Under the pieces are notes generated by a model. The model ran no database searches. It was given only the letters and a program-made list of their open reading frames with translations, and was not told the origin of the DNA. Position numbers and translations under genes: made by a program. Positions 25,947 to 63,040 of a stretch of 64,000 nt of DNA are shown piece by piece; within the stretch, counting starts at the first letter, position 1, and each line of letters opens with the position of its first letter. This stretch comes from Harriotta raleighana (Eukaryota), in the NCBI GenBank assembly GCA_050575255.1, contig JBNZDD010013714.1:6798959-6862958 (forward strand). Reading direction: 5' to 3'.

Positions 25947-25976
25947 AACCACATGATGAGTCAGCACGCACAGTAA
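25947..25976 (+). CDS. ZNF423: ZNF423 terminal coding exon (NHMMSQHAQ*)
   Basis: Long T-rich tract + tgccAG acceptor (25945-46), phase 0. Completes the last C2H2 finger (ELQ-NHMMSQH); TAA at 25974-76. Absent from the ORF track because it is a 30-nt coding segment. Confidence 0.93.
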   Translation, partial: NHMMSQHAQ

Positions 25977-40859: not shown

Positions 40860-41190
40860 GGGGGGGGGGGGGGGATTTTGATGTGAAAGAACGCTGCGTT
40901 GTCGGAGGTGGCGACTGTACGGGTCAGACTTTGAACTCGGGTCTCGGGTGGGAGTTAAACGCTCCGCAGCTACGTCAGNAGGGAGGAGTTGCGTTGCTTG
41001 GGGTTGGTTTGTTTGCGTCTTTCGTTGCTCACCTCTGTCTGTGCTTCCCGTGTATGTATGTATGTATGTGTGTGCGTGTGTATGTATGTGTGTGTGTGTG
41101 TGTGTGTGAATGAATGAATGAGTGAGAGTGACTCAGTGAGTGTGAGTGAGTGAGTCAGTGAGTGAGTGTAACTGCAAGAGATGGCGGCTG
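40860..41190 (+). promoter_or_regulatory. Putative TATA-less, CpG-enriched promoter/5' UTR of the PEDS1-like gene
   Basis: Local CpG enrichment, CRE-like TACGTCA at 40971-40977, YY1-like AGATGGCGGC overlapping the ATG, flanked by (TG)n/(TGAG)n repeats. TSS not determinable. Confidence 0.55.
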
Positions 41191-41346
41191 CTTCTCGGCT
41201 GTCGGAGGGGGACACTGAGCAGCGGTCCATGGCTGAGGAGGATCCGAACGGCAATGAACACGGAGCCGGGGCTGGCAGCAGCTCAGTGCCTCGCTGGGGA
41301 CCTCAACATGCTGGGGCCAGGCAGCTAGCGCAGCTGTACTCGCCGG
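41181..41346 (+). CDS. PEDS1: PEDS1/TMEM189-family plasmanylethanolamine desaturase, coding exon 1 (MAAASRL...[20 protein letters not shown])
   Basis: Strong Kozak gagATGG. Contains the hallmark N-terminal motif RWGxQHAGARxLAxLYSPG of TMEM189/PEDS1. Donor G|GTAAGG at 41347, phase 1. Orthology versus paralogy to human PEDS1 is unresolved. Confidence 0.92.
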
Positions 41347-41599
41347 GTAAGGAGCTCAAGAGAGAGAGACAGACAGAGAGACAGAGAGAGAGAGACAGAG
41401 AGAGAGACTGCCTTATAACCAGCTAGTTTAACACTGAGGACACCCCCTGTACACACACACACACCATGGAAAGCACCGTACATGGTGGGGTTGGTCCATT
41501 ATAAACAGCTATTCTGAGACCCTCCCAGGTGAGAGTAGCTGCAATGGGAAGGAACCACCCACCCACTCACCCAGGGCATAAATTTCTATTCTCATCAGG

Positions 41600-42080
41600 G
41601 TAAAACCTTGGGCAAGTCTCCCCGCTCCGCTCCGCATCCGCTGGGAATAATCCCCCAAAAGAGAAACGGTGATAAATTGGTCATTTCAATTCACGGCAGA
41701 TTTTTTTTTTTTTTTGGGGGGGGGGTGGTGGGGGGGTTGGGGTCAGGGGCTGCATTTCCCCCACAAAATGTACACAGTCAATTCACTCTACAGTATATTC
41801 CGTGAAGCACTTTCAAAGGTCTGGAAGATACGAAAAGCGCTATATCAAATACAAGCATTATCATTATTATTATTATTCTATCTCCCCCCCCACCCCACAC
41901 ACCCCCACCCCCCACCCTCAAAGAGGAGGTAGAAATGTGTGCTAATCCCAATATGTTTTCACCCACAAATACAGAGTCAATTCACTTTACAGTATATTCC
42001 GTGAAGCACTTTGAGACGCCTAGAAGACATGAAAAGCGCTATATCAAATACAAGGAATATCATTATTATGATTATTATTA
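41600..42080 (+). mobile_element. Two tandem 5'-truncated SINE copies (41600-41878, 41955-42080) in PEDS1-like intron 1
   Basis: Both end gtgaagcacttt...aaagcgctatatcaaatacaag..(att)n. The first has poly-T/poly-G runs replacing part of the core. Confidence 0.85.
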
Positions 42081-42829
42081 TGAAAAAGGGTCCAAGCTAC
42101 AATGACCTACCATGTTAGGATTGACACAAATTTTGATCTCTTCAAGGGAAACAAAGTTAGCTGCCTTAGCAGAGTTCTCTCTCTCCCCCTCCTGCCTTGC
42201 CCTCCTATTATATCATGACATAAAACTACCTGAAAAATGCAAGGCATCGATTTTTAAAAAAATCAAGAGCCCACATCGTCATGTGTTTTTTTTGGGCAGG
42301 AAACCAAGATCTAGTTGCCTATGCCCTGCCTGTTTTAAAGGCAGGGAGTCAGGATTGGGTTTGGGTCCGACGAGAGCAAGTTACCCTTGAATTCCTAACC
42401 CAAGTAGCGTGAAAGAAAGACAGAACTTGTATTTCACATATAGTGCCTTAACCACAAATCAAGAGCTCAGTACTGGTTGGCAAATGTGCCAGCCACTTCG
42501 CATACAGCCAAGCCCCACAAAAGGCCATGAGGGGAATGACTGATTCATCTGGGAGGTTGTTGGCCAGGACACTGGGATAACTTCCCTTTCCCTTTTCAAA
42601 TAATGTCATGGAACCTTTTTAAGTTCAACAGACTTAAGTCATGATTTCAACTTCTTATCTCTGAGTACAATCCAGCATTCCCCTAGTGCGGTACTGGAGT
42701 GTCAGCCAAGCCTATGAGCTCAGTCCCAATATGGGGTTGGGGCCCCCAAACCTTCTGACTGAAGAGGTAAGAGTCTGCTGGCTGGATCAGTACGAACACA
42801 GCCATTGGATTGGTGCCTCTTTCTGAAGA

Positions 42830-43525
42830 TCATAGTGTAGCCTTACCCTCTATTTCAAGGCCGACCACAGCCTTGCCCCCTCCTACCTCTCTGACCTACT
42901 GAATTCCTAGTAACCTGTCCTCTCCCTTTGTTCAGCAGGCTCCCCATGTCTCCCCACTCGACCTGCCCTACCATTGGCAGCCGGGCCTTCACCCTTTCTG
43001 CCCCTACACTTTGGAACCTCATCCCACAATCCTTTCACCTTGCTCTCTCCCTTGCCTCCATCAAGGTTGGTCTCAAGACCCTCCTCTTCGACCGTGCCTT
43101 CAGTCGCCTTCCTACCTCTCTGCCCTTCATCGTCCCAGCCCTCACCCCCCCCCTCCCCCACCAGTCCAGCGTCTTGGGACATCCTCCCAATGAGAAAGGT
43201 GTTCTGCTACTAATAATAATCCTTGCATTTGATATAGCGCTTTCACGTCTTTTTGTAAGTGTCTCAAAGCGCTTCACGGAATATACTGTATAACAATTGC
43301 GACAGACAATTGCGCTCAGCAGTGTCCCACAAACAGTCGTGGATTGAACTGATCAATTTCTTTTGGAGGGATTATTAATAGGCCTGTTGAGTAAGGAAAC
43401 TTGTGTGCGAAAAAGATTTTGCCCTGACCTGCCTGGAATTGAACCCAGGTCTCTCGATTGTAAGGCGAGTGCTCTAACCACTGCGCTACAGAACTCCACA
43501 AAAGTAATTTTGTTATTGATGTTGT
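42830..43525 (+). mobile_element. 5'-truncated L2 fragment whose 3' terminus is interrupted by an antisense SINE (43210-43497)
   Basis: GSRAFTLSAPTLWNLIPQS...LKTLLF. The terminal motif gaaaggtgttc|...|cacaaaagtaattttgttattgatgttg is split by the SINE. Confidence 0.85.
43210..43497 (-). mobile_element. Full-length tRNA-derived SINE, short subfamily, nested in an L2 tail
   Basis: Antisense head ggagttctgTAGCGCAGTGGttagagcactcgccttacaatcgagagacctgGGTTCAATTCC; Deu-type core; (TTA)n tail. Confidence 0.9.
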
Positions 43526-45356
43526 AGCCTAGTCTTGTCCAGAAAGCACAATTGCAACAGACACAGGAGAAATGGGGATAGGGGGGGGTCACGATATATG
43601 AATCAAAAATAAAACACCTGGTGTGCTTTTCATATAAAATCATGTGGATAAAACAAACCACACACTATTTGTTTAAACTGGACAATTGGAACAGGATGTT
43701 ACAGAAACCTTGAAAAATAAGATTTTTAAATTTTAGTAAGGCATATGGAAGAAGCAGTGTAGAGTTGGAAAGAAACTAAACTGTCAGGAGATGAATGCAA
43801 ACGCATCAGATACACTGGCAGCTTGATCCTGTCCCCATTCACACACTTTCCAGCCAGAGCCTTTGGATAATGGTCAGGAGCATAATTGCAGGTTGTTCTT
43901 TCCTGACCCTTGTCTGGAGCATCGAGTTGTTTGTAACAAAGGCTGTGATAAGCAAACTCAGCACAAACAAGGCTTCAAAACCGTTGCTGTTCGGTGTGTG
44001 TGACTGAGTGCTGCACAGGGCGGTGTTTTCCCCAGTAGTCCATGGGGAAGCATTAATCGTTCGCTTTGTGTCTTTCAATCAGAAGTAGTAGTTATCTCTC
44101 CGATTGTAGTGCCCATCTGCCAACCCAATTAATAATCTGGTCCTTTTCTTCTTCTCCCTTCCACAATAAACTAAACAGAGTTCGTTTTAATTTGTTTATT
44201 TTTTAATAGAAATGACTTAAGAAGTTCGTACATTTCCTTATTTGGGAAACACTTGTCACAGCTTAGTGATTCACCTGGTGGGGTGGCAGCTGCAGTCAGC
44301 AGCTAGTGGAAGGAAAATGTGATCAGCGAGAGCGATAGTTCCAGTATTAATCCGTTAACTGTTTAGTTTAACCATTGCCATTACTCTGCACTTTTGATGC
44401 TGTGCAGAAATTTCCATTGTACTGTTGCCAGAAGCGTAGGTAGCTGTCCTTGGCTTGGAAATGTTGCTGTAAGCAAAGTTGCCTCCAAACATCATTCTGG
44501 CATTGTTTTTATAATATATAATAATATATAATAATAATTCTTGCATTTGATATAGCTCTTTATTACGTCTTTAAGATGTCTCAAAGCACTTTACAGAATA
44601 TACCGTAAAGCAGATTGACTATACTTTGTAGATGATTTTGCTTCACTCTAGTCACTGTATGAAAATTATCCATTCTTTTACTTTAGGCATTACATTGTGC
44701 TCGGTTCTAAAATGTCAGTTTTCATCACCAAACTGAGACAATTTATGCTGGTAGACTAGATGCTTATGTCTACTTTCTATTGGTTTTAAAAAGCAGCTGA
44801 CTGCCCATCACATTCCTTCTGTAACTGGAGTCATAGTCAAATGTGCCTGCAGTACGCTGGGTAAGCAAATCTGCCACTGTGTTATGTAAAGAAGAGCCTC
44901 ATTTGGTTAAAGGATGCTTTGTGATCCATATCACTAACAATTGGCATTCCAGATAAAGGTTGATTGGGACCAATGAGCTGTGAATATATTGTACATAGTT
45001 AATCATGGTTAGTGTGAGCATCAAACTTTCTGAGGCAAACATGATTGTTACTAGTCCAGAAATGAACTAGTTGTAATGGTTGAACAGCAGTTATTGACAA
45101 ATCCCAGTAGAATAATTGCAACCTCTATTAGTGCTCTGATAGGAATTATGTTCCTTCTCTCCTGCTGCATCAATTTAACATCACAACCAGCAGTAGAGTG
45201 ATTTCGAATGGAAAACTTGGTCCATACTTTGTTGCTCAGTCTGAAGCACTATGTACATGAGCAACTTACCACCAATTTGTTTTCTAGTGTTATTTTGTCT
45301 TCCTGGTTTTGTATTGAAACACTTCAAATGTTACTGTACTTGCAAACTGTTGTATA

Positions 45357-45872
45357 CAGGTAGACCCTATTTAACATCATCTCAGTTAATGTTTTTTCGT
45401 TATTACGTTGCTGATACATTGGGAACATTTATACATTTAACGTAGCGACGTTCGCTAAAACGTCGTTTGCTCGCAGGTGGAAAGGGGGCACAATGGCGCT
45501 AGGACCTGGGAGTGAGCCAGGCCGGCAGTGAGAGAGAGAACCAGCCGGCAGCGAGTGAGGCTGGCAGTGAGTGAGACCGGCAGCGAGCGAGTGAGATCGG
45601 CAGCGGGTGAGTAAGCTGGACAGGCAATCAGGAAGCGAGTGAGTGAGCCGGGCTGGCAGGAAGGGAGCGAGTGAGTGAGCTGGGCTGGCAGGCAGGAAGC
45701 GAGTACAGCATAATGATTTTTAAGAAAATTTTGACAAAAAATATCCAAAAGAACCTAACACCAGTTTTGTATTCATTCTTATGGGAAAAATGTACAGTAT
45801 TCGCTTAAAGTCGTTTCACTTAAAGTCACATTATGCAAGAACCAAACTACAAAGTTAAGTGGGACCTACCTG
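45357..45872. mobile_element. pogo/Tigger-like MITE family B with internal GC-rich degenerate tandem array
   Basis: TA TSDs; TIRs CAGGTAGACCCTATTTAAC / GTTAAGTGGGACCTACCTG; subterminal (C/T)TTAA(A/C)GT repeats; internal (gccggcagcgagtgag)-like units at about 45505-45705. Confidence 0.8.
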
Positions 45873-46692
45873 TAATATATCTCCCTCATTCTGTTGGGTG
45901 ATGCTGAACTGGATGGGGAAGCTTGCACCAGACAGCAGTGGTAATGAGCACTAGGGAACAGGATTTAGGTTAATGTGTGAATCACTCTTGCAGTTTATGA
46001 CATTATCCAACATCCCTCAAGTGTGATGCCACCTTCTAGTAGGAACCCGCTTGCTCTTCGTGTGAATGTTACCGATCAATGACTGTAATGGTGTTTGTCA
46101 GACTTTGTAACAATGGTCTCTGGTAGATACAGGATAGTTTGCTCAAAGACCCCAGTGTTTTATCAGACTCTTGGAGCCCCTGATGAGAGATGAAGAAAAT
46201 CAGCCAACTGAGGTAAACAAATCTGAGTGACAGGCACCTCTGGGATTTGAACCAGTGAACTTTTGCTTGGCTGTCACACCCGTAGATTATTATCTCATGA
46301 CCTGATCTTCAGAATGAACACGTGACACCCTCCTTCAGTTGTCTGAAAAAAAATTAGTGGAGCACTTTTGGAGCGTTAAAAGTTTGATTACTGTATACAG
46401 AAATAACAGATGCTGTACAGTGATAATTAGATACGACTCCGTGTATCACACTCTACCTGTTAAGATTCTCAGATTGCATGGAATATCCTGCTCCGGGTGC
46501 TGTCCTTTCATCTTCTGCTGGGATTTAGGCTGTGTTGCTTGTCGCGCAAAGAAAACCAGACACTCAATCGGAGGAGATGCCACTTACGTGTTGTGCTTTG
46601 CACAGCGCCACCTTTGAACGACTGAAAATACAGTGTGCAACATCATATGTTCTGAAACATGGACAATACTCTTTATCTAACTGTCTCATGCT

Positions 46693-46915
46693 TAACAACA
46701 ACATCAACAACTTGAATTTATATAGCGCCCGTCACATGGGGTGGTGTGCCAGAGTGCTTGACAGTGGTGGAGCACGATGCTGAGTCGGGGGAAGAGGAGA
46801 GGTGACCATAGGCACGATCAAAGAGGAAGGACTTCAGATGCGATCTGAAAATGTAGAGGAAGAGGGCAAAGCGGGAGAAACAGTGCTCCAGAGGCTCGCG
46901 GCATCGCGACTCAAA
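46693..46915 (-). mobile_element. Decayed L2 3' fragment
   Basis: (CAA)n tail plus tatatagcgcccgtcac motif and purine-rich ORF2-end remnant. Confidence 0.65.
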
Positions 46916-48496
46916 CCCTGTCTTAAAACCTGTTCACTAGGTGCTGTGCTGAACATCGGGTGACTTTGCTCCTGGCATTTTGAGCTTGATTATCAATTTG
47001 GTTTTGTTGCTAATGAAGGTGATAGCACCTGATGTTTCCATTGTAATCAGGGAATTAACCCACATCATTGCTGTGCAATGACAATTAATCATGAATTAAA
47101 AGCTGCTAAACAGTTCAGTTGGCAATGGTAAACTTCACAAACGTAAAATTTATCATTGCCAACGTTTGTGTAAGAAATGTTGGCAACCCCTTGTTTTTGC
47201 AATCGCTTTCTCAGTCATTGGTTCCCAGACATTGATCTTTGCTCAAACGCCCTTCGCGGATTTCAGGAGGCGCTATTACATTTTATTCTTCAAGTTGTCT
47301 TTCAAACAGTTGATAAATAGCGATGACCTACTGTGGCAACAGAATATATATTTATGGAACCTGCCGATGGTCCCTCTTGATGTTTTTTCTTTAACCTGAA
47401 AGGCAGAAGTTTGTTTGTTTTCTGCAGTGAAAAACTAGTGTGAGAGCCCAGTTCAATAATCAAAAAGTTCAGCAATATTAAGAACAGAGTGTACTGGAAG
47501 TGTGCAGCAGAAAGCCACTTCTCAGTTTAACAGGTTGTGTTGGCCAGGACCAGTTAGTGGCTATAGAACAGCAAGTATCGTGAAATCCACACCCTGCAAA
47601 TCTGATCTTGGAAGATTCCTGATCCAATCAGTCTAGTTTGTGTCTGACTTTGCCAGATCCCATTTAAACTTGTTTTTAAACTGTGCATATATGCCTCGGG
47701 ATTCCTGAGTCGCCTGTGTTTTTTTTAACCCAAGACCATTGGATTTTAGAATAAAAATCCTATGGAATGCAAAATGTGAATCGTACAATGTCAAATTGAA
47801 AGATTATTATTCGTTTAAAACTTGTCTTAAAAGCCTTGGAAAATTCCCAATTCATTTCAGTCTTAATTTGAAGGATAGTTTGGTGCCATTCTTTTCTGGA
47901 TTCTAAATTAATACTAAATTTAAGAATTTTCCCAAATTCTCAAAGGACTTAAATTTTAAATCTTGAGGTTAAAACATCTCCACCTTTGGAACTCACTTGT
48001 CGATTGTCACAGCAGCTGTACACAAGAAAGATTAGTATGGGAGTCATCCCATCCTAGTTCACTGTTTTTGTGCCTCTTTGTAGTTGATTTGAGAGCTCTA
48101 TTGGTTGTGGATCATAGAGTCCCCTTCCTCAGTGAGGGTATAGTGCATGCTAAGGGGAGCAGCAGACATACAACTCCTTGTAACTCACTAAAAGTAGAAA
48201 ATTGCTCTGTTATGTTTATAGTGGTCCAAGTAATTCTGCTACAAAACTATGCAGTGATCTCAATGTAGATTTTTTTTTATCAATAGGTTTATTTAGCTTA
48301 GTTCCCTGTGCTTTGCTGTGACTTTTTGATTCATCACTTTACTCCCACTCTTGCCATCATTAGTACGTTTCACTGTATTTTTAGATTGCTCAAAATACTC
48401 TCTGGCTGAACATGGAGAGTTACCCTGGGTGATTCTCCAAACTCAAATGGACTCATAGTATAATTTTCACACTTCACACTGTTTGCTGCAGTGAAG

Positions 48497-48695
48497 AATA
48501 ATAATAATAATCCTTGCATTTGATATAGCACTTTTCACTTTTTCTCGACTTCTCAAAGTGCTTCACAGAGTATACTGTAAAGTGAATTGACTATATTTGT
48601 GGGCAAAATGTGGCAACCAATTTCGCATAGCAGTGTCCCACAAACAGTCATGGATTGAAATGACCAATTTCTTATTTTTTTTGAGGGATTATTAT
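48497..48695 (-). mobile_element. 5'-truncated SINE (further 3' stubs: 2938-3075 -, 15298-15410 -, 15636-15745 -, 17455-17575 +, 44520-44630 -, 50250-50336 +, 58900-59040 +, 63645-63757 -)
   Basis: Shared tail (aat)n-ccttgcatttgatatagcgcttttcac...tctcaaagcgcttcacagaatatactgtaaagtgaattgac. Confidence 0.85.
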
Positions 48696-48950
48696 GAACA
48701 TTCAGGTTGAAACAAACCTGTGATGGGAATGTATATTAAGTTTGTCTGTCGCTCCACTACCCTGACACTAGTGACAAGTTTTATACCTTTTTGCAAGAAA
48801 ATATTTCTCATCATTGTTTGAAATGTACAAGGGATCCAGTTACCGACTTAGTCAGCAAAGAATTGAATGTTTCTTCTGTATTTCTATGTTTCTTTAAAGT
48901 AAATCCTCAAGAGTTCCAGTTTCTAAACAATATTGCGTTGTTTCTAAATC

Positions 48951-49452
48951 CAGTAAAAGCCCATTTATCCGTGATTTGATGAACCAGAAAACCGGCACCT
49001 CAGAAAAAAAAGTCCCGATTCAATAAACTGGAAATTATCTGGCAGAATAGCAATGACGCATTTAATGAATAGATTGTTGCAAGCGAGTACTGTCCAGGTA
49101 TATCGGTTGGCCACTAGTCGAGTGTAAAGTCACATTACTGCCGTTTTTTAAAAGTCGCGCTACTGCCGTTTTGTTTTCCTCCCATGGCGACCACTGCAGA
49201 AGTTAAACATAAATAAAGTACTAATACAATATTCTGTTATTATAATATCTGTTATTTAGTCTATTATTTATATGGTCCAGTGTACAACATTTACAATAAA
49301 ATACTCATACAATATTGTTATTATCTGTTATTATTTAGTCTATTATTAATATGGTATGTGTTAAAATATATATATTTTTTTTAGAAAAACCGGAAAGCCA
49401 TTTAATCGGCATTGGCCAGGTCCTGTGGGACCAGATAAATGGGCTTTTACTA
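48951..49452. mobile_element. pogo/Tigger-like MITE family A, ~500-bp copy just upstream of PEDS1-like exon 2
   Basis: TIRs cagtaaaagcccatttatcc / agataaatgggcttttacta; interior collinear with the 30871 copy. Confidence 0.85.
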
Positions 49453-49585
49453 TAGTTTGCTATTTTTCATTCAGTTCAAAGTAAACTGCCCATCTTATCA
49501 TCAAATTGAAATAAATGCAAGTGTAATGTAAAACTGTATGCTATAGTGCCTCAAAGTACAATAATTTTTCTCCCTTTATTCCCAG

Positions 49586-49705
49586 GTAAACGATTGCAGG
49601 AATGGATCTGCGTCATCCTGTGTATATGTCTAGTGATACTCAACACATTTTTCCTGATAGTGCATTTTTCCACGGATCACGTTTTCAAATTAATAATCGC
49701 CATCG
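49586..49705 (+). CDS. PEDS1: PEDS1/TMEM189-family coding exon 2 (G-KRLQEWICVILCICLVILNTFFLIVHFSTDHVFKLIIAI-), first transmembrane segment
   Basis: Pyrimidine tract + cccAG acceptor (49584-85), GTAAGT donor (49706), 120 nt, phase 1/1. Continues SPG|KRLQEW as in PEDS1, then a hydrophobic helix. Confidence 0.92.
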
Positions 49706-49939
49706 GTAAGTATTAAGCATGTAGGGTGACATTTCAGACAATTATTGTGCGAGAATCATTTCAATCAGGATGATGGGCAGACAGAACAGGAAACAGTGTG
49801 AATTTGGGCTGGATTAACAGTGACAGAACGAGTGTTCACACAGAGCAATCGGTAAAAGCCCTAACAATGTCTTTCCTTTCCTCACTCGGGCAAATGGGAG
49901 TCACTAATCATTCATTCCTCATGCAACAACTTTCTATCA

Positions 49940-50032
49940 CAAAAACAGAAATCGCTGGAAACACTCAATAGGTCAGACAGCAACTATGGAGAAAGGAAAG
50001 TGAGTCAACGTTTTGGGTCTTATCTTCAGTAG
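49940..50032 (-). mobile_element. Penelope-like element terminal fragment (similar stub at about 21215-21250)
   Basis: aaaacagaaatcgctggaaacactcaataggtcagacagca...gtcaacgttttgggtc resembles the common chondrichthyan Penelope terminal repeat as I recall it; not verified by search. Confidence 0.45.
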
Positions 50033-52295
50033 TTATCTTCAGCTAAACTCAGAACCAAGTCAAATACTGACTGAAGCGGTTTCATTGCAAAATATTTATC
50101 TTCTGCCAAGAGTGAGGTCAAAATTCAGTCAGTGACTTGGATAACAAAGACAGGAAGTTTTAAAGATGTTTGTACAGAGAAGCAAACTGAATTAATGGGG
50201 GAAGAGGAGGAAACTTGGCAATGTAAAAATGTTTCATGGGAGGGTGGTGTACAAAATATACAGTCAATTCATTTTGAGACTTCCAAAGACATGATAAAGC
50301 GCTGTATCAAAAGAAAGGAATATCATTGTTATTAATTGTATAGCTGCATTGTAATCAACAGGGAATACATTGTAATGCACAAATGATCTGTGATCAAATG
50401 ATTTTACACTTTGTAGTGTTTTTTTTAAACTTAAAAAGATTCAGACCTGGAACAAAATCATTCTAATCCAAATCATTTTACCAGCTGAATTGATTACTAT
50501 TCAAAAAGAAGCCTCGACCTAACAAAGGAAAGGCACACAGCAAACAGTCGGTATCCCTTCAAAATCACTCATTTGAGTGAAAATGTATGGGAGTTGAACA
50601 GTTTGCAGTAACTCTAAATTGAAGTTGACACAAGGAATTTAATAGATTATTTATTTTATGAAAACATGGAGTGCCATGGGCAAGCAAGCAATGCAAACTG
50701 CGTCGATTCATTTCTGGAAAGCAAAGGATGAAATAAGAGAAGGCCAGACAGAGGCTTTCTGTCTGTACAGAATGTAAATGGTGGGCGGAGCTCAAACTGT
50801 TGCACAAAGAAATGTATGAAAAACTAAAGTCACGTGACTAACTCCTGGCGGATTGGATTTCTCTATACACGGAGATTAAGTAAATGAAGAGATTGGAACT
50901 CGAAATAAGAAAAGGGAATCTGAGAATATATGAGCGCAGGTATTAAAGGGGCGGATGATAGATGATAGATTAAAAAAAGTAGAAATTAAATTGCTGTGCA
51001 CATGAGCAAGTAAACACCCCCCTCCCCAAAGAGAATGAGAGAGAAATGGTGTGAATGGAAGCAAAAATGGTGAGGTTCACTCTGGGAAAGCAAATAGAGA
51101 AAAAGCAGCTGAAATCCTGGGTAACAGAATGACGGGTGATGAGATTCAATCTGAATTCAGGAATGTAAAATCAGTTTTCCATTTGGCAAAGCATCACTGC
51201 CAAACTAGAAAAGTCTTAATCTCACCCAAACCCTACGTCTGCAATTTCCAGCTCCCGTCACTTCATAGCAATCAGGAGCAGAAACTCTGGTTATTTCATT
51301 ACAATCTAGGCCGGGAATATTCTAATAATCATAATCCTTGCATTTGATATAAAGCCTCACATCAGGAGCACATTTTAAAGTGCTTCACAGGATACACTTT
51401 AAAATGTATTCACTCTATATTTTAATTGTAAACACACCAGCTGATTTGCACACTGCAATATCCTATGTACAGCTATCAAGGGAATAACCAATTTTATTTG
51501 GGAGATTGTTGGCTAGGATACCAGAAGAAACTCCCTTCTCTTTTTGAATAGTACATTGCGATCTTTAACAGTCAATGCAAACAGGCATTCGGGATTTAGG
51601 TTTAATGTCTTAACTGGCAAAACCTACAATGTTGTGCACCTATATAAGTTCAAAATCCTAAATTAAAGCTTGAACCCACAACTTTCTGACTCGGAGGTGA
51701 GAATGTGTTAACAAAATGAGCCAGGCTGACTCAATATTGACATATTGATTTCCTCTGGTTGACATGGAAAATATCCTTTAAATTAAGCTTAATTTAGGAT
51801 TTCTTCAGAATTCAGTCATTTGTTCTTTTCCTCTAAGTTTGTTTTGCATGCATTAGCCTCTGAACATTTACGCTATCAGTTCCATAAATGATTTGAAAAG
51901 CTCGGATCTTAATTTTCCCTCAAATCTTTTTTCCCCATCTGTTTGACATTTTGAAGTCCACTTTTGTGTCAGGGCAAAATACTATTTCCAGATCGGTAAT
52001 GTGAATTGCTACTGGGCAAGTACAAAATTGCTTTTGTCTCCAGATCATTGTCATTCCCCTGCCTCTCTTAGCGCAAATGGGCCAAGCCAAGAAATGGGCC
52101 AGGGTGACGCTGTAATCGACAGTAAGGCAACGTTTTGCTACACATCAGCTCCAGCCAAGCTCCAGCATGTCCATTTCAATTTTATTAGAAATCAGAGAGC
52201 ACGGATCCCTGTTACACATCAGCACGGCAGTCCAGTAAAAGAGAAGGCATCTGATGTGTTTTTTAAAAATTTAACAGCCGAGGATGGTATCTTAC

Positions 52296-52915
52296 TACAA
52301 CATTACAAAATTACACTTGTATGGTGCTTTTGACGCCAGCAGGACATCCCAAAGCGCTGAACAGTCAGGTCGGGACCTGAGCAGTGGGGGAGGGTTGGGG
52401 GGAGGGGGAAGGAGAATGGTAGAGGGCGAAGAATTAGCGGGGAGCCGAAGGTGTGGTCGAAGAGGAAGGTCTTGAGACCGGCATTGAAGGAGAAAAGGGA
52501 GGAAGCAAGGCGAGGGGACTGCGGAATGAAGTTCCATAGTGTGGAGGCAGAGAGGCTGAAACCCCGGCCAACGATGTTAGGGCGGTTAGGGAGGTGCACG
52601 CGGAGCAGGCCTGAGTCTGCTGAACGGAGGGTGCGGGAAGGCTGATAGGGAGACAGCAGATCAGAGAGATAAGCGGGGGCAAGGCCATTCATGAAAGTGA
52701 GGACGAGCCTCTTGAATTCGATCCTCCAGGGGATGGGGAGCCAGTGGAGACTGATGAGGGTGGGAGTGATGTGATCACGAAGCCTGGTGCGAGAGAGTAC
52801 ACGAGTTGCAGAATTCTGCATGATCTGTAGCCTGTGAAGGGAGAAGTTGGAAGGCCGACGAGGAGAGAGTTCCCGTAGTCAAGCCTGGAAGTGATAAAGC
52901 CGTGAATGAGGGTTA
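52296..52915 (-). mobile_element. Relatively young 5'-truncated L2 (ORF2 C-terminal ~200 codons, mostly open)
   Basis: TLIHGFITSRLDYGNSLLVGLP / QNSATRVLSRTRLRDHITPTLISLHWLPIPWRIEFK...LWNFIP...LKTFLF; CpGs largely retained; L2 3' motif at 52296-52360. Confidence 0.93.
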
Positions 52916-54669
52916 CCTATATAGGTAGGTTTGTACCTTTTGGGCCATACTACAAATGATCTCTGCAACGACTCGTATTTGTATCTCACCTTTCGCTTAA
53001 GAAAATATCTCAAATGCTTCACAGAGTTGAAGTGTGATCTCGAGCAGGCTGGGAGACATGGGGTTAGGAGGGAGGGAGGGTGGTTGACAGTCTGGTTAAA
53101 GGATAGGGTTTTACATCACCAAGTGTGAATGTCTCAATTAACAACCATGTTAATTGCAACTTGGGAACAGAGTGAAGTAAATTCATATTAAACTTATGCA
53201 TTACTCTACGAGGCAGCACAAAAGTACCTTTGCTCTCTCCCTGCTTTCAAATCCAGTCTTGGCTTCCTCTTAGAAATTGCAGATTTTTTGTACCCTTAGG
53301 ATACTTTGGTTGGTGTCCACATGCATACAGCATAAAGTATCCATTTTGTTCTCTTCCTCCCAACTGGTCCTCATTTCGCTCTGTACATTCACCGGCAGAA
53401 ATACTTACTTTGTGTGAATGTCCACGGTTTAAGTTTCTGATACTTAAGGGAAGCTGAGCTTGTGAGTGTGAAGATTTTATGAAAAACATCAGTATCAAAA
53501 AGTAAACTTCAAAAATTGTTGTCCCTGGGTCATACCAGTGGCAGCAGCAACGGTTTGACTATGCCATGAATTAACACATTCATTGAATAGCAACATAACC
53601 ATTAAGGAACATGAAAATTCAACAATTCTAAGCTTATGACTGAGCTGTTACTCAATACCATTTGTCCGCCTTTTCTTCACACACTCTGATACCCTTGCGA
53701 GTTACTACATAAATATTTTCACCATCCTTGCTTTAACTTTTCCTCAGCTGAATTCCACAATCCTACAACATTTTCAGTAAAACTGATAATAATAATAATC
53801 TTTACATATGATATAGCGCATTTCAAGTTCGGAGGACATCTCAAAGTGCTATGTCCTGTAAAATATAATGGCTTTGTATTTTGTAGGGTGCACAGAACTG
53901 ATGTAGGGCTTGAACCCACATTCTTCTGATTTAGAGATGAAAGTGCTACCAATTGAGTCAGGCTGACACAAATGAATTCACTCCTAACAGGTCTATCTCT
54001 AATTTGATTGTTTGCCCTTATAGTGTTTTATATAGTCATTTCAGTTCTGTCCGAGTCCCTATACATCCGTCAATCGAGACGCAGCATTTTCTCTTACTGT
54101 AGTTTCCATAGCTCTCCAACTTTGACATTCTTGGATATTTTGCCAGGCCTTTTAAATCATTTGCACATTCAGGAACTGCCAAGCTTTTCTGTAACTTAGT
54201 ACACGTTCGTAAATAAAGCTTTGACTAACTCAGTGCATCTGTACATAGATCCATTGTGTGGAATTATAATGCGATTTGTTTTTTTTCTTCCACTGTGAAA
54301 GGACATGTTTAGCATTTAAAACATTTTGCCTAGGAACAAAACCTTCACACTCTCATTTAATTATAATGCATGAATTAGTTATTGATACTTAACAGCCAGT
54401 TGGTCTGTCAATTGGCCCACTCTTGTCACAGGCCTGTGACCCTGTGCTTTAACATTTAAAATGCAAGAGACTGAGATCGCTGAACAACACTGAAGTAACA
54501 GCTCCTCTGGCTGTGTGCCTGATATTGGGTAAGGTTCCTGGTGTGTTGGCTCTTGACATTTTGTTTAAATGGCAGGAAAGGTCCTAATCAGCCTGACATC
54601 TCCTGGCAGACATCCTGACTGCTGGGATGTTTGTAGCTGAAACCCAGGCCCACTTTTAGCACTTCACAG

Positions 54670-54778
54670 AACAATGTCTGGTGTGATGCTTGTGAAAGCG
54701 TGGAATCCACTGCCACAGAAGGTCGTGGATACAGAATTAATTGGGATATTTATAGGGATGATAGATGGATACTTTGCT
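54670..54778 (+). mobile_element. CR1 3' fragment
   Basis: V-K-A-W-N-P-L-P-Q-K-V-V-D-T-E...IFIGMIDGY resembles the CR1 ORF2 C-terminus (WNxLPxxVVEAxSxxxFKxxLD). Confidence 0.6.
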
Positions 54779-57700
54779 TGCTCGGTGATCCAAATATTTT
54801 CCATAAAGCACTTAAAGATGTTGAGCTACATGAAAGGCTCTATGTAAGTATAAGTTTTGGGAATGTGGAATAGGAATGTAGAGAATCAGGATCAAGAGAA
54901 AGCCATTCAGGCCACTGAGACAGTTCCACAGTCAGATTTGTGCTGTATCATATCTACAGCGCATTTTAAATTTACCAGAAGGAAGTCTAGATCTAATTTC
55001 ATTGTCATTTCCTGCTTCTGTTCTTGTTGTGGCTGTGCTGGAAATAAGATAGTGACTGCACAATGTACAAACGAGCAGCAGAATATAGATCCACCCATGC
55101 TCTGCAGTGAGCTATTTTGTCGTTTAGTAATTCTTTGTATTTATTTTCTCGTAAAAGCTGCACAAACTCAGTTTATTTCCTTTACTCAGAGTTTGATCGA
55201 AAGCTTTCATCAAGTGGTTTATCTGATGAAAACTGACAAGCTCTTCTTCTTTCTGTAGCCTGTTCCCTCTTCCTTGCCCAATTCCAACAAAGCAGTGGAT
55301 CCCTTTTTTTGTTGACTGTAATTTCTCCTTATCCCCAGCTCCTCCCCAGTTTCTTTCATGTCTCCCCAAGGAATAAGACCAGGTTGCAGTGGCTCCTATC
55401 TGATCAAATTGCTTTGGGAATACGTTGTTGCAAGCACATCTCTGTGATCTGTCGAGGACACCATCTCCATTCTCCCCTTTCATTAAGAGTTTTTAAAAAA
55501 TTATATAGTAGTAGCACTTATCAAATTATCCATTCTGAATGAAATGCACATGGTGGAAATAGGATATTCTTTACGAAACAGGCCCTCGTGAGGTTTACTC
55601 AGTTTGCGACCAGTCCTATGCTGAAGTGTGCTTTTGTCGTTAACAGTGTCCTACAGGACATCCGTTCCCTTGCGTGTTAAGAAGTTGCACTATACAATGG
55701 GGAGAAAACCATTACCCAGTCACGGGATGTGAGGCTCTCTATGTACATTTGAACAGTCTTTGTCGTAGGCAGCAATGGCAGCTGTTACTTGGAAAATTGC
55801 GAACTGTCAGGCTGCAGGATATGAATTAGTAAGACCGGAGGAACGTTATTTAAACTTGGGTAATTGAAAACACATTCTTGTAATTAAAAAGAAGCAAGTG
55901 ATTGATGGTTGCCATTTTCCAAGTACTTTTAGATCATTTTTCATCTCTGCTGTGGGCCCTTGACATATTTAGTCTTGGTCTGGTTCTTGGGTGTTTGGGA
56001 GCGGATATTGCTCAGAAAGTAAAGTGCGTTCCATTTAGATACAAAGATGAATTGAACAGTTACTTACTGTTAGAAATGCTCAGCATGTGCCTGCATTTTG
56101 CTATGAGTATAAGAAAATGAACTGTTATCCGCTCAGATTCTCAAACAATAGGATTCCCAAATAATGGTCCTTTCTTCAGCTATGGGCGAAGCAATCATAA
56201 ACTAGGATTTGTTGTACAATCAGAGCACAGTAGTAGCAGCCAATGTGAGGTGAACAGCTGTGCACACACGCGTTTGGCTGTTCAGTGTGCAGGGCACAAA
56301 GGGACCACTTAATCACCTTTCAACTCTTGTCATTGTTCCCGATGCAAGATCACTTTAAAAAGGCAAATATTAGACCAAGGACAGGATAAATCAAAAGGAT
56401 TGTCGGACCTGGAAAAAGAAAGCGACATTAGGTGAGGCACAACAGTAGTGAATATTAAGCTAGGGAAGCTGATGTGAAATGTACTGAACTCTTGTGTATG
56501 AGGAAATATTGAGACTAAATCAGTGATCCTCAAACAAATGTTTTTGTGTGGCCACCAGTGAATGTTAGCCCTTGAGGTGCTAGCTGCTGTCGTCCAGCCA
56601 TCCACTTTGTAGTAGTGAGTCCAACGCTCGCTCCAACTACCAGGCTCATTAGATGCTTGCACCTTCTTTCCCCCCCTTCAAAGTGCTGGAGTGAGGGGGA
56701 ATGGGGATATCTGCTATGACCATATTAAATCACATGATGGCGTATTTGAGAAAGGCTGGACAAAACCCAACAAAAATGAAAAGGGTTCGAGCCAAGGTTC
56801 ATGTAGATAACAGGGAGATCGAGCTCAAAAAATGGACGCAGGTCTTTTGCTGTAACAGAGAAAGTTAAGAAGGGATCAAAGAAAAACTTCCCACACCTTC
56901 CCTTGTCTTAAGTCACTGTACAGCTCCATTAGGGGTTGTCTGCTTGGATGTATGAAATGGGGGACTTTTCTTTGTAATCAGATAACTTAATGTACCAGGA
57001 AGCTTCTTCATGTTTCGCCTACCTCAAATTGGATTGTTCCATTACCCTGTCTGTGGCCTATGGCCACTTCCCCTCATTTCTGTTGTTGTTTCCACTGAGT
57101 AGTCCAGGCAACAACCAAGGAAACTCATTCCATCTGGCAGGCAAATTGAAGTCACAACCAGTCCTGGCACTTCACCCATTGTTGATCCTGTTAAGAAGGC
57201 AGGGGTAGAATTCCTTCAGCAGAGCAGGCTGCGATGCTGATTTTACTCTTCCTTCTGGCATTTTACACAAAATATTTTCCCTTTCTGTACTGAGCGCCAA
57301 GTGGGTCTGTAAACAACCTGTGGCTGTTGACTGCTGTGTAATTGGTCGCTGAGAGAAGGCCCCGCTTTACTTGTCCTCATTTTCTTCCTGTGGATGTGTG
57401 TCTTGCCTTTGGAGCCTGCCCCGGGCAGATTGGCTGTCCATAGGCCTCAAACACCCCCCCGGTTTCATCCTGATCTACATATGTTTCAACAGCGGAACAC
57501 ATAATGGAGCATAATGTTCATTTCTGATGGTAGCTCTGGGATCCTGCCCTGCATGAGAAGTGCTATATAAATGCAAAATAATAGGCACAGAGGAATAAAT
57601 ACAACTGGATACACACTTACATATACAGTGTATATATACTGTATATATCTACAAAGCATTTTTTCATACTGGATGGACGTTGAACAAGTCCAGAATGCCA

Positions 57701-59819
57701 GAAATGGGGTTACTTTCCTTCGCAGGCATCTGCTTTGTGTCCTTCGGAGTCATGGGGGAATACGTCTGTGAGTTTGTACCTGCTGAGAAGCCGTCAGAGA
57801 TTGTCCAAAGTCATTTCACTGTGACACCCCCCCCCATCCCCCCTCCCTCCCCCATCAGCAAACAGCAGCCTGCAAGACCCTTTGCCCCATCTGTCTGGAC
57901 TGGGTTTGAACTCTGCTCCCAGATGTGAAACAGCAGTATACTGATGCACTCGGTCCCCACCTGCTGTTTTGTTTTCTTGTACCTCTCGAGTCCCCAGGTC
58001 GCTTTGGAGATTCTAAAATGTCTTCTTCTCACATGCAGCAGAGCAAGGGGAGCAGATTCCTCCTCAAATCCACAGCGTGCTGCTGAATTCATCATCAACC
58101 CGAGGGGAACTTGACATGTTTCCCCCCACATCAAAACAACTCTTGCTTTTATTTTAAATGCGCTGTTAAATGCCCTCCTCTCCTGAATATCGCTAAGTGA
58201 TCCATTTGACCTTCCTTCAGGAGGGAAAACAAATTCCCTACAATAACAGGCACCAGTTCAATACCCCGCCGTCAAAGTCTTTTTTTTTTACCCCCCTCAG
58301 GTCGTGCGTGGACACAAGGGGTTCCATCTCCAGTCTATAGTTCTTTGCTGAGAGCTTGTAAAACTGCTGCTTTGCAGCTGCTGCACTGAGGTATCTGCTC
58401 TGAGGGGACTTGAAAGCCGCTACGAAGCGAGCGCACACTTTAGGGGGGCACTTTCTTTTTATAGCAATTTCAGCCGCCTCATCTGTGAATCTGGGAACGC
58501 TGTGCTCTGGAGCACCGCTGCTCGGTTTTCCCAGTCCCATTGCCGTGCAATTTTAAATAAAAGATTAGTTTGGAATATTCACCTGCTGTGGTGAAGCCTC
58601 ACTTCCCAGTAAAATCATTGCCCGCGTCTATGGGACTGCAGGCTGTCATTTGCTTGGAGAACGGTGCATGCCTCCGCAGCTCTGTCCTGTGCTGTCCTAT
58701 GTTGTGTGCGAAGGCTGATCTCAATAGACCTCGAGCTGCCCCGAAGAGACAGATAGAATATTCTTAGGTTACATTCACCGAACCCTGTCAAATGATATGC
58801 ATTTTTCGCAAAGGGAGAGTGAAATGGGGACAGTATCAGAGGCTAGGACACATCCTTGCTCAGGCTTCCAGTGAGCTCTGACCTCGCTCCAGCTGCCTTA
58901 GTGTGGGCTGTTGCTATGCATAAATTGGCTGCTGCGCTTGCCTATGAAATGCACAGTCGCTATATTTACAGCAAATCCTGCTAGGCACTTTGAGACATCC
59001 TCACAATGTGAAAGGCACTGTATCAAATGGGATGAGCACTGTTATTTTTGGAAGCAGAATATGCCGAGCAGATTAGACTGAATAACATACTGAGGAAGGG
59101 TGCACAGTCTGATAGTGTCTGACTCTTGACACAATCTGCTGGCATTTTCCTGTTGTCTAACCTCAGTATAAGCTTAGGTCAGCCCCCCTAACCATTGTTG
59201 CGCTCCCCATCTTCCTGTTGTGCAACACGGAGCTGCGTGGGAAAGGGATTCTCATCAGGCCGGGGTTTTGTGACAGCATCAGGAGCAATGAACTCTGGTG
59301 GACACTCATAGACAGGAATTTGCTCAAAAAATGTTTTAATTGCGAGTCAGTTCAAAAACTGGAGGCTAACTGGGAGCGTGCTCACAGCTGCAGTAGACTC
59401 TCGGGTTTCAACGACTGCATAAACTGCTCAAATTTCTAAACGTGATTTATGCTCTCAGCCGTATCCTTCTAGTCTTGTGTTGTAGTCTTGTGATTCTCTC
59501 CCAGTGGTGTCTTATTTTCTATACAATGTGCGCGGGCCACTTTATTCCTGGTAGTCGACCCCTAAACATTTCTTGGTGAAATTTCCCGTCATTTTCACTG
59601 CTAGCTGTATGCTGGCCTTCGCACGGACCAGACCAGACAATGGTGTCTGTGCAGAAATTTGTGCAGAATTTGCACATACCTGAATAAAACTGCCCTGTGA
59701 CATTCACATATTCCAACAATTCAATACCCTGGAGTGAGTACAAGGCTGCATTCTCAACTTGGCAACGCATGACCATTATAAACCACTCAGACATGCTCCC
59801 TGGAGTTGTAAAAAGCTGA

Positions 59820-60070
59820 GCCATAGAAGTTTGATTTTTCTTATTCCCCCTAGTCTGTGATGAGTTGGAAAGATGCCTGGGAGAGCAGTCAGGGTGCCAC
59901 AATGAACCTCAGCACTCGAGATTTTGTGGGGGTCGGTCAGGGTGCTGCTCCTAATAACCACCAAAGAGGAGGGTGGGTGAGCGAATGATCAGTGAGTGCA
60001 AACATGAGCAAGCTTGGCTGTGATTTTTGGCTTTAAATAAAAGGAGTGGGGGAGACTAATGGGCCTGAGA
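59820..60070 (+). mobile_element. Ancient tRNA-SINE remnant of a different family (AmnSINE2-like, tentative); related tail at about 6590-6645
   Basis: gtctgtgatgagttg...gggtgccacaatgaacctcagcac...cagggtgctgctcct...gcttggctgtgat resembles an ancient vertebrate SINE consensus from memory; family name uncertain. Confidence 0.35.
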
Positions 60071-61149
60071 CTGAAACTGGAAGGAGGAGAAGGAAGCCTT
60101 AAACACTTTTCACACGAAGAAGGGAAACATGATTAAGCTTTGTTCTTGTGGTTTGCAAATTAACCTGAACTTTCTCTGCCTTGGTGTTCTTCCCGGATAT
60201 ACATTATTCGCAGTTTGATGCACTTCAATTGCTATACTATCTTGTAGCAATTTGCATGTAGTGAGGTGTTCTACTCGAATCGCCCTTTCTATGATTTCAT
60301 GATTAATACATTGTGATCTATCGCAGAGCATTTGAAGGATAGTTACTATAGACGGTAATGAATAACCTGGTGTCTCAGTGTGTGTGTGGGAAAAAAAGAA
60401 CCATTTGGTTGGGACGTTAAGTGGAGAGGCTGGCACAGTGCATTCACTGACAAACTCTACAGGGATCTAAGGAAGCTTAGAATAAGTCATCGGGAATTTA
60501 CAATTACTATGAATAATGGTGAATTATTATTATAAAAGCTGGAATGAGAGCTGATTGTTACTGCACCTCAGGATTCCCTGATCAACCCTGAGCCATGTGT
60601 GCCCCTCATTCTGCCTGTCAGCCCCACCTGCCTACATTAATAATCCCACAGCACTATTTGAAGGGAAGTACGTTTCTCCTGGTGTCCTGGATAAACATCC
60701 CCGCACATCAGAGCAGGTGACTTTCGTTTAGTGACTCGCCCCTGTGGTGCCTTTGAGATCAGCAAATTGTGCAAAGAAGACAGTTTCTCGAAGCAGCAAA
60801 TGGAACAGTAGAAATGTTTTCAGCGCAGAAGACTTAATGCTGCGTGGAGGGTGTATGTCGATGTGGTGGGACATAACTTCTCAAAGTGCTTTGCATGTTG
60901 ATTTGGTGGCGATGGCCTTAGACAAGTTATCAAGATGTTCCGCTCAGTGTGGGCTGCTCCAGAAAGCTACCCTGCATGAGGGGAGCAATGTAAAGTGAGA
61001 GTGCGAGAGTGTTGTTAGTCTCACTTTCCTGCTTTTCCCCTCACCCGTTTATATTTTTCCTTTTCAAATATTTGTCTGATTCCCTTTGGAAACATTTTCT
61101 GCTTATCTAAGGAACTAACATCAAATCTTTAAGCGATCTTTCCGATTGC

Positions 61150-61522
61150 CACACCATTGACAGGCAGGCTTTCAGCTTGTTCTGCATCCACTCACTGCAA
61201 CTTAATCCTACAAACCCATCAATGCATGCCCTCCCTCCTTCCCACTGTTCAAGCCTGTCACAAGACTTGCCTCTTTAATCGCACTTCTAATCATCTATCC
61301 CCTCTCCCCCCTCTTCGGATCCCCAATATCCCCTTCACCCAGCTCCGGTGCCCAGGCAATATTGTAAAGCACTTTGACTNACACTTCTAATCATCTATCC
61401 CCTCTCCCCCCTCTTCGGATGCTACCCCCTTCACCCAGCTCCGGTGCCCAGGCAATATTGTAAAGCACTTTGACTTGTCTTCTTGATGCAAAAGAGCTAC
61501 AGTATATAAATGTAAATTGTGT
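61150..61522 (+). mobile_element. Decayed L2 3' fragment (contains a gap-associated duplication)
   Basis: ggcaggctttcagc...ttcaagcctgtcacaagacttgcctcttt...aaagcactttgac...tataaatgtaaattgt. Confidence 0.65.
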
Positions 61523-62287
61523 TTTAGGGGCAAGTGATGCTGTGTAGCTAGGAATTGCTGCATGTCACCAACAGAAAGCCAGGGGTGGGCATGTTTAATT
61601 GAAGATCACAAAATTGATTTGGATGAAGAAGGCCTTTCAGTCCACCTGATCTCATCCCTCCAGAACGCTCATCCTAGCTTTCTCCCACCAAAGCATCAAG
61701 CTGCTTGTTTAATGAAGACTTCTTCATTAAAAGTCTGAAATAATGAGCAGATGCAACTGTGTGTAGCCACCACTGTATAGATCAGGAATTTCAGTTTATT
61801 TTGATCCTGTATAATCCAAGCTGCAAGTCAATACTCCATATAACGCCTTTCCTCCACTGATATAAATGTCTAAAATGTAGCAAAAGAATATGGAAGACTG
61901 GAGGGGTTTAATCTTTCTTCATCCTGTGCTTTGATGTGCGTTCCTTTCATGGTTTACGGTGAGGTCAAGTGCGGACTGATCAAATCCTGAGAGTAAAGAA
62001 ACACAGAAACGCAAATAGGAAAATATTGGAAGCTTTTAAAAAAATCAAAGACTGTAGACAGTACCTTTGGGGAAATTGAAGCAGTGCAGAACCTTGTCAG
62101 TTTGCATTAAGATGAGATCTATGATCCCTAATGGATCCTCTCCTCATCTTAACCTCTCACCTCAGTTATCAAGAGTTGACGGATCAGTGGGCTGGAGCTG
62201 TGCTGCTTGATCATATCTGACGGTAGGAGGCGCTGTGTCCGTTGCCCCACACTGAGGTGAACATCTTCCCAATTGTTTACAGGAATA

Positions 62288-62680
62288 ACAGCAAATAATA
62301 TGTATTTATATGGTACCTTCCACAAAGCATAATGTCTCGAAAGTGCTTCACAGTGGTGGGGCCATGATGCTGAGCAAAAGAGAAGGATGATGATAGGGGT
62401 GGTCAAAAAGGCAGGTGTTCAGGTGTGAGTTAAAGAGATATAGACAGGGACTTGTGTGTAGAAATAGTGACTGGGAGTTTCAGACTTTAGGGGCATAATG
62501 ACTGAAGGCTCAGTCACTGATGGTAGTGTGGAGGGGACAGGGAGATATCCAGCAGGTCTGAGTTAAGTGAGCACAGGGGACAAACAGAGGAGTGGGGTAT
62601 GCGAAGATCAGAGAGACAGAGAGGGGTGTACTAGGGCATGAAAGGTGAGGACCTTGAAGTTGATCTATTGGGAGACAGGC
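62288..62680 (-). mobile_element. Old L2 3' fragment
   Basis: tgtatttatatggtaccttccac...aagtgcttcacag tail followed by purine-rich antisense ORF2-end remnant. Confidence 0.55.
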
Positions 62681-62689
62681 AGAGATTTG

Positions 62690-63040
62690 GAATACTGTAG
62701 TTAAGAGTACTCGCCTAGCAAGCGAGAGAACTGGATTTGATTCCCGGTAGGGCAAAACATTGGGCACATTTCTTTACTGCACACATCTCTGTTTACCTAG
62801 ATTGAAGTAAGTAGGAACCCAGTTGTTAATTGAATGGTGGATTGCTTTTCTGGGGGTAAAATTCCTTAAGAAAACAATAAATCGGTCTCTCAATGAACGA
62901 CTGTTTTGTGGGACTCTGCAGTGTACAATTGGCTTGTCACCAAAATATACAGTCAATTCACTTTACAATATTTTCTGGGAAGCACTTTGAGATATCTCAA
63001 AGGTGTGATAAAGCACTATATCAAATGCAAGATTTGTTAT
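62690..63040 (+). mobile_element. Full-length tRNA-derived SINE, long subfamily (extra central block)
   Basis: tRNA-like head, extra block ctctgtttacctag...gtaggaacccagttg...ggtggattgcttttctg, Deu-type core and L2-like tail. Confidence 0.85.

Follow-up and report, generated by a model that had tools for sequence, protein, structure and literature searches.

A second PEDS1 gene in Harriotta raleighana, a probable ortholog of zebrafish peds1a with a conserved N-terminal motif

Structure of the gene in the window

We examined a 64,000-nucleotide stretch of the Harriotta raleighana genome (assembly GCA_050575255.1, contig JBNZDD010013714.1; G000:C13714:6798959-6862958, forward strand; hereafter the window, with positions counted from its first letter), in which a gene of the PEDS1/TMEM189 family begins 15,204 bases after the stop codon of a zinc-finger gene, presumably ZNF423, on the same strand. 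We call this gene copy A, and a second, UBE2V-linked PEDS1 gene elsewhere in the genome copy B. The first-pass annotation of the window had described a spliced PEDS1-type gene about 15 kb after that stop and had suggested that it was a second paralog, derived from genome duplication and lost from mammals. The two loci, their paralogous surroundings and the phylogenetic trees described below bear this out, the loss from mammals at the level of protein listings.

Assembled from the window together with the sequence downstream, copy A comprises six exons, predicted from the sequence to be spliced into an 858-base frame free of stops that encodes 285 amino acids. Exons 1 and 2 lie inside the window. 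Exon 1 (41181..41346, plus strand) runs from the ATG to a gt donor in phase 1 and encodes residues 1-55, which form a tail predicted to be disordered followed by the family-wide segment RWGPQHAGA. This tail contains a ten-residue motif (residues 16-25; 41226..41255, plus strand), within which D21-x-N23-x-N25 (41241-41255) is a candidate ligand of SPRY domains. Intron 1 (41347..49585, 8,239 bases, gt-ag) is followed by exon 2 (49586..49705, plus strand, 120 bases, ag/gt, phase 1), which reads into KRLQEW and encodes the first transmembrane helix and the start of the second. Intron 2, 24,919 bases in total, fills the window from its first part at 49706..64000 and continues beyond the window end. 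Exons 3-6, within which the stop falls and which encode all of the catalytic histidines, lie beyond the window on the plus strand at G000:C13714:6873583-6873674, 6876084-6876228, 6884297-6884509 and 6887884-6888005, respectively. Exon 5 has an aag acceptor at a position homologous to that of copy B. A search for RNA sequencing runs covering the exon 6 region listed none, which speaks neither for nor against expression. The eight matches to Pfam family PF10520 among 13 candidates scored represent four exons at each of two loci, in order, and exons 3-6 of copy A each exceed the curated cut-off of the family (36.9-89.4 bits vs 26.4).

A second PEDS1 gene and paralogous blocks

The PEDS1 exons of copy B lie at C13721:9057695-9070593. 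A single-exon bZIP gene of the CEBP type is found about 12 kb upstream of them in head-to-head orientation, and UBE2V exons, three of which were found by tblastn, start 13 kb downstream. This is the arrangement of human PEDS1 (TMEM189), which we take to lie at 20q13 beside UBE2V1 and CEBPB. The adjacency of UBE2V1 and human PEDS1 has also been described in print (PMC9131029; this and the other papers below are cited from the excerpts available). In Callorhinchus a PEDS1-UBE2V readthrough form is annotated (P0375), and the fusion may therefore be old. In copy B (C13721:9057695-9085900, L019-L022) we also observed that the joint of exons 1 and 2 (YSPV-KRFQEW) carries Val, where Gly is usual; bamboo shark shares this Val.

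No UBE2V or CEBP sequence was found by tblastn in the 164 kb around copy A, which include gaps of 213 and 1,337 N, and the 75 kb downstream of it, with one 1.3-kb gap, contained no UBE2V exon; therefore, a readthrough fusion is not expected for copy A. Exons 2-6 have the same lengths (120/92/145/213/122) and phases in both copies, and the five introns are phase-matched. Because this exon-intron structure is common to both, copy A is not a retrocopy. The two proteins are identical at 182 of 284 aligned residues, and over 229 codons the genes differ at 62, 29 and 129 first, second and third positions.

The finding of a UBE2V-flanked twin bears directly on whether copy A could be a displaced ortholog, a product of misassembly or a decaying pseudogene. 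The sequence downstream of copy A does contain scattered N in addition to the two gaps, and the aag acceptor of exon 5 is weak. However, copy B is a separate, true ortholog that groups with the human gene, the assembly is free of gaps from the ZNF423 stop to exon 2 (two single N occur in the window as a whole), and copy A has an open frame, canonical splice sites and full-length orthologs annotated in many sharks and rays. We therefore give this alternative almost no weight.

The surroundings of the two copies correspond as well. On C13714 a TOX gene (5.79 Mb) and a SALL gene (6.14 Mb) precede ZNF423 and copy A (6.84 Mb), and 50 kb beyond copy A lies a cerebellin gene whose best match is CBLN1 (6.94 Mb). 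On C13721 the order is TOX (1.20 Mb), a CBLN4-like gene (7.10 Mb), SALL (8.46 Mb), CEBP (9.04 Mb), copy B (9.06 Mb) and UBE2V (9.08 Mb). In both blocks, a SALL zinc-finger exon precedes the PEDS1 copy by 0.6-0.7 Mb and has the same orientation. The presence of TOX, SALL and CBLN genes on both scaffolds agrees with the earlier suggestion that the corresponding regions are paralogous; we take the paralogs to be TOX3/TOX2 and SALL1/SALL4, together with CBLN4 and CEBPB. Three CBLN genes were found in the genome. To judge from the pairings within these families, it was probably the first round of duplication that separated the two blocks. Between the loci, no duplicated non-coding element stood out beyond the exons and six short matches of 49-98 bases.

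Given these paralogous blocks, copy A very probably originated in the vertebrate whole-genome duplications. The competing possibility is a small-scale duplication before the gnathostome radiation, which placed one copy in a paralogous block by chance. The differing nearest neighbours, with neither CEBP nor UBE2V near copy A, would fit such an event, as would trees that leave the lamprey and amphioxus nodes unsettled. However, it would have to coincide with three families paired across the scaffolds and with PEDS1 genes in the same orientation at a similar distance from SALL, and we regard it as very improbable.

Two further observations concern the blocks. A third stretch, G000:C13655:1199044-2387836, contains CEBP and SNAI genes and a CBLN2-like gene, without a PF10520 match, and looks like a further member of the same paralogon. 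On C13721, the TOX exon pattern is present twice, 1.8 kb apart (G000:C13721:1202833 and 1204628; L041, L042), either because the exon was copied in tandem or because the assembly duplicates it.

Phylogeny and age of the duplication

A tree was built from the two genome copies and 71 proteins chosen by hand, most of them full-length, with fragments and most near-duplicates left out; it resolved two clades. Clade A (24 rows, support 100/99) contains the window gene with proteins from Callorhinchus, whale shark, rays, bowfin, gar, paddlefish, teleosts, coelacanth, lungfish and turtles. Clade B (39 rows, 96/88) contains copy B, mammals, including human PEDS1, birds, squamates and amphibians, and second genes from fish, lungfish and turtle. 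In mixture-model trees, clade A was recovered with 98/98 (33 rows) and 100/98 (39 rows, tuatara added). Cartilaginous fish, ray-finned fish, coelacanth, lungfish and turtles are thus present in both clades. Approximately unbiased (AU) tests rejected a duplication confined to chimaeras (p 3.2e-07) or to teleosts (p 7.5e-05), and amphioxus fell outside both clades with a support of only 72/84. These sequence comparisons indicate that the duplication predates the split of cartilaginous and bony fish, and that jawed vertebrates ancestrally had two PEDS1 genes.

The guide RNA published for zebrafish peds1a (PMC11362147, supplement) translates into the zebrafish clade-A protein and that for peds1b into the clade-B protein; therefore, the window gene is the ortholog of zebrafish peds1a (si:ch211-212o1.2, ENSDARG00000011498), with which it shares 169 of 229 core residues and the same ten-residue N-terminal motif. 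UniRef already assigns the zebrafish peds1a gene name to proteins of Callorhinchus and Latimeria, and the orthology is therefore implicit in databases. The zebrafish pair has been treated as an exception among mostly single-copy species (PMC9131029), whereas the pair described here predates the gnathostome radiation, and that picture is corrected to one of an ancestral pair. The zebrafish ortholog of human PEDS1 is peds1b, not peds1a, which matters for the interpretation of zebrafish knockouts. The sections examined of PMC13012113, PMC11225845 and bioRxiv 10.1101/2023.09.12.556286 discuss neither vertebrate paralogs nor the tail. An ohnolog database that may list the PEDS1 pair is described in PMC13450315, and one supplement of that paper gives no gene-level entry. 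Among the papers listed in our search, which lay outside subscription journals, Ensembl Compara and ZFIN, there was no published account of the age of the pair, of the motif or of a link between PEDS1 and SPSB proteins.

Among tetrapods, clade A appears to have a patchy distribution. The best 120 of 3,240 matches to a turtle clade-A protein span down to molluscs and arthropods; among the matches listed, tetrapod rows reached 83% identity or more across the matched part only in turtles and tuatara, those of amphibians, squamates, birds and mammals stayed at or below 73%, and there was no crocodilian row. All amphibian, squamate, bird and mammal rows placed in the trees fell in clade B. Several independent losses of the clade-A gene are therefore likely, where absence from mammals, birds, squamates and amphibians is read from protein listings, not from genome searches. 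In sea turtles, the clade-A-cluster models of leatherback and hawksbill (P0424, P0427, P0420) are only 149-160 residues long, which may reflect decay of the paralog in these species or poor annotation. An apparent third gar paralog beside MKNK2/MOB3A (P0013) was rejected: it is a PEDS1 piece in a chimeric Atractosteus "MKNK2" model, and its PEDS1 exon is identical at 71/71 residues to the gar clade-A protein P0009, as expected of an annotation or assembly chimera.

Active site and predicted activity

All eight histidines reported to be essential for the enzyme (PMC8960569, where mouse numbers minus one give human numbers) are kept in copy A as H110, 135, 136, 201, 205, 229, 232 and 233, which match human 95, 120, 121, 186, 190, 214, 217 and 218. 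A ninth histidine (human H130), described as setting animal PEDS1 apart from plant FAD4 (PMC9131029), is kept as H145, and human D99 and F117 are kept as D114 and F132. Copy A shares 149 of 229 core residues with human PEDS1 and keeps every residue reported to be essential. It is a paralog of the human gene, has no UBE2V readthrough partner and carries a motif absent from the human enzyme.

For the fold we used the whale-shark ortholog (P0045, 80% identical), whose model has a mean predicted local distance difference test (pLDDT) score of 88 and four long helices, with pLDDT below 50 at residues 1-9 and 17-32. Its best fold match is the fatty-acid hydroxylase Scs7p, a weak one (Foldseek probability 0.91, E 0.22; VIA Z 7.2, root-mean-square deviation 5.0, 188 aligned); Scs7p and SCD1-type membrane di-metal enzymes are remote, at 9-16% identity, and catalyze another reaction. 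A sequence search found no solved PEDS1 structure.

PEDS1 activity and complementation of carF have been reported for both zebrafish homologues (PMC11362147, PMC9131029). By family membership and analogy with the zebrafish ortholog, we are confident that copy A, as a membrane di-iron enzyme, converts plasmanyl-ethanolamine to plasmalogen by desaturation; the vinyl-ether bond that it forms is likely the one made by human PEDS1.

The first-pass annotation had raised the idea of a different substrate, or a different tissue use, linked to the richness of cartilaginous fish in ether lipids. A changed preference for head group or chain would be consistent with the alterations of holocephalan copies at conserved sites and with the faster drift of copy A: compared with their Callorhinchus counterparts, copy B is identical at 228 of 229 core residues (C. 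milii PEDS1) and copy A at 202 of 229 (P0003 vs P0106), a holocephalan asymmetry of 27 differences against 1. On the other side, the clade spans bony fish, including teleosts, coelacanth, lungfish, turtles and tuatara, so that a tie to cartilaginous fish physiology is not supported, and the catalytic residues are kept. Only three core columns separate the clades (I/L106, I/V109 and E/Q251), two of them aliphatic swaps, and the reported function of the zebrafish homologues likewise speaks against the idea. We consider a changed substrate quite improbable. Nor does the divergence of exon 2 after KRLQEW, previously offered as a sign of paralogy, distinguish the two genes: over 33 columns, identity to human is 24% for copy A and 27% for copy B, and this divergence is therefore no paralog marker.

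The N-terminal motif

The clearest difference between the twins is an ancestral N-terminal motif, SMxE[ED]DPNxN, which is kept in clade A and also found in lampreys and invertebrates. Among proteins whose RWG segment is preceded by at least 18 residues and whose core scores at least 500, [DE]xNxN is carried by 82 of 91 in clade A, 1 of 110 in clade B (a lungfish), 7 of 7 in lampreys and 24 of 24 invertebrate-like sequences, in counts that include near-duplicates and splice forms and take clade labels from the nearest reference. Named carriers include amphioxus, oyster, Solemya, Lingula, horseshoe crab, spider and centipede; distant homologues without the RWG segment, several of which have no motif, were left out. 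Its presence in clade A, lampreys and invertebrates marks the motif as ancestral, with retention in A and loss in B: the UBE2V-linked twin has lost it in nearly all lineages, and the human enzyme is without it. What is new here is this split in the fate of the motif between clade A and the human-type clade, and copy A is neither shark-specific nor a gene of unknown function.

Conservation per position was taken from 30 hand-picked rows that were selected for having the motif, in which D21 is kept in 30/30, N23 in 29/30 and N25 in 29/30, and position 24 takes seven residues. The tail of copy A has no lysine before K57, and any ubiquitin would therefore need to attach to loops further in or to the N-terminus.

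Individual lineages depart from this pattern in several ways. In Callorhinchus, the clade-A motif is eroded upstream (IADEDPNGN). In lungfish the situation is reversed, with an intact motif in the clade-B protein (DPNFN) and a broken one in the clade-A protein (DVDGT) (P0184, P0098, P0117), and in the coelacanth clade-B protein only a remnant is left. To judge from these sequences, the keeping of the motif by one twin per species would fit a partition of subfunctions.

Predicted docking to SPRY domains

The Harriotta genome carries an SPSB1-like gene, a second SPSB1/4-like gene and an FBXO45-like gene (L034, seen through its first exon), the last of which we name on our own assumption. A near-invariant D/N/N with a variable middle position is the pattern of SPRY-domain ligands, and D-x-N-x-N of clade A is conserved in a region predicted to be disordered (residues 17-32 in the whale-shark model). 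Binding of iNOS to SPSB2 is carried by Asp23, Asn25 and Asn27 (PMC2911665), and FBXO45 has been described as binding [DE][IL]NXN (bioRxiv 10.1101/828426). Thus, the tail resembles the ligands of SPSB1/2/4 and GUSTAVUS (iNOS DINNN, VASA DINNNN, Par-4 ELNNNL, REV-ERBa LDSNNN) and of FBXO45 in its acidic-x-Asn-x-Asn pattern, its place in a disordered N-terminal tail and, as predicted, the same pocket. It differs from them in the Pro at position 2, in its variable middle residue and in that its ligand role is a prediction; no membrane lipid enzyme was among the reported ligands examined.

We co-folded residues 4-38 of copy A with the SPRY domain of the SPSB1-like protein, alongside three controls. 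The pair scored 0.87 against 0.47 for the best control, where peptides and disordered chains lie outside the calibration of the method (mark reached by 51/78 solved and 2/108 mismatched microbial pairs, and by 39/65 and 2/126 in eukaryotes) and the model did not use the alignments of this analysis. Runs share at least 43% of contacts, with a partner pLDDT of at least 51, and confident contacts come only from residues 21-28. The modelled contacts match human SPSB1 P79-S83, G110-T111, Y129 and V216-H219, the site of Par-4 and VASA, and the modelled N23 and N25 meet residues matching T111, Y129, V216-G218 and the loop after R77. From this model, docking of N23 and N25 into the SPRY pocket of SPSB1/4, or of the related FBXO45, has in our view slightly less than an even chance, and it is somewhat more doubtful that docking recruits a cullin ligase and shortens the life of the enzyme, that is, sets its turnover.

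Taken together, copy A is probably best read as an intact PEDS1 paralog that arose before cartilaginous and bony fish diverged and is orthologous to peds1a, likely with the same chemistry as its twin and likely with different control via the motif. For that control, we tentatively propose the following scheme. An ancestral bilaterian desaturase may have carried, at its N-terminus, a DPNxN degron recognised by ubiquitin ligases of the SPSB/GUSTAVUS or FBXO45 kind. Two twins would then have arisen by genome duplication in early vertebrates, copy A, which would desaturate plasmanyl-ethanolamine to plasmalogen under this regulation, and the UBE2V-linked copy B, which would have lost the degron. 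The disordered tail would be cytosolic, by analogy with the four-helix topology of CarF (PMC9131029), and its D-P-N-x-N would bind an SPSB-type or FBXO45 SPRY domain, an adaptor that would bring in a cullin ligase and speed up the turnover of copy A. Mammals, which appear to keep only the degron-less twin, and likewise birds, squamates and amphibians, would each have retained the latter alone. This scheme is possible, at a likelihood below that of docking itself.

Besides the limits on counts, listings and calibration given above, several points weigh against the overall reading of copy A. Support for clade B is weaker with more outgroups (68/76 and 58/67, mixture model), and AU tests allow the lamprey sequences with A, with B or outside both (p 0.26-0.47). 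Copy A is changed at three otherwise conserved sites (F132L, F178S and D204E in human numbers), and altered activity is therefore possible. The canonical (E/D)(L/I)NNN is not matched by the DPNGN of copy A, with Pro at position 2 and Gly in the middle, where other proteins have G, Q, K, S, C, A, Y or F. The reported SPSB peptide ligands examined all carry NNN, and copy A lacks the middle Asn, whose change to Ala in Par-4 abolished binding to SPSB1, 2 and 4 (PMC2923778). In addition, like complexes are already solved, and the co-folding result may therefore reflect memory.

In an alternative account, which the missing middle Asn would fit, copy A is an ohnolog with the same activity and the motif is no degron, serving instead to bind another partner, as a sorting signal or as a second start at Met17. 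S16, M17 and E19 are conserved like the D and N residues (0.93-0.97 of the 30 rows), although a five-residue SPRY ligand would have no need of them, and several database models begin at Met17. A second start is at odds with protein-level conservation upstream of Met17 (E9; Ile at position 12 in 23/30 rows), and the account as a whole with the match of D-x-N-x-N to the three key iNOS residues and their modelled place in the known pocket. We judge this account unlikely, less so than any other alternative to the degron.

If the degron proposal is true, human plasmalogen synthesis has lost a control still present in invertebrates, lampreys, fish and turtles, and the ligand code of SPSB proteins widens to D-P-N-x-N. 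The motif is a conserved and testable candidate for a regulatory element at the last step of plasmalogen synthesis, and zebrafish, which has both twins and existing mutant lines, is a direct system for the degron idea.

Neighbouring features of the window

The last coding exon of the upstream zinc-finger gene, with its stop, lies at 25947..25976 (plus strand), and earlier zinc-finger exons lie near 7547 and 11408. We take this gene to be ZNF423 from its C-terminal sequence and from its position, flanked by a SALL gene and CBLN1. A search of solved structures gave no name for it, and the exact patterns MSRRKQ and SNAG had no match on C13714 or C13721, which is no evidence of absence.

Within intron 2, window positions 55500-61000 form a long stretch that is repeat-poor by eye, with a G+C content somewhat above its surroundings. 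It may hold enhancers of the ZNF423-CBLN1 block, possibly with a bearing on the retention or loss of the gene. Within intron 1, a tRNA-like match of 40.3 bits (43424-43495, minus strand) is likely the head of a tRNA-derived short interspersed nuclear element.

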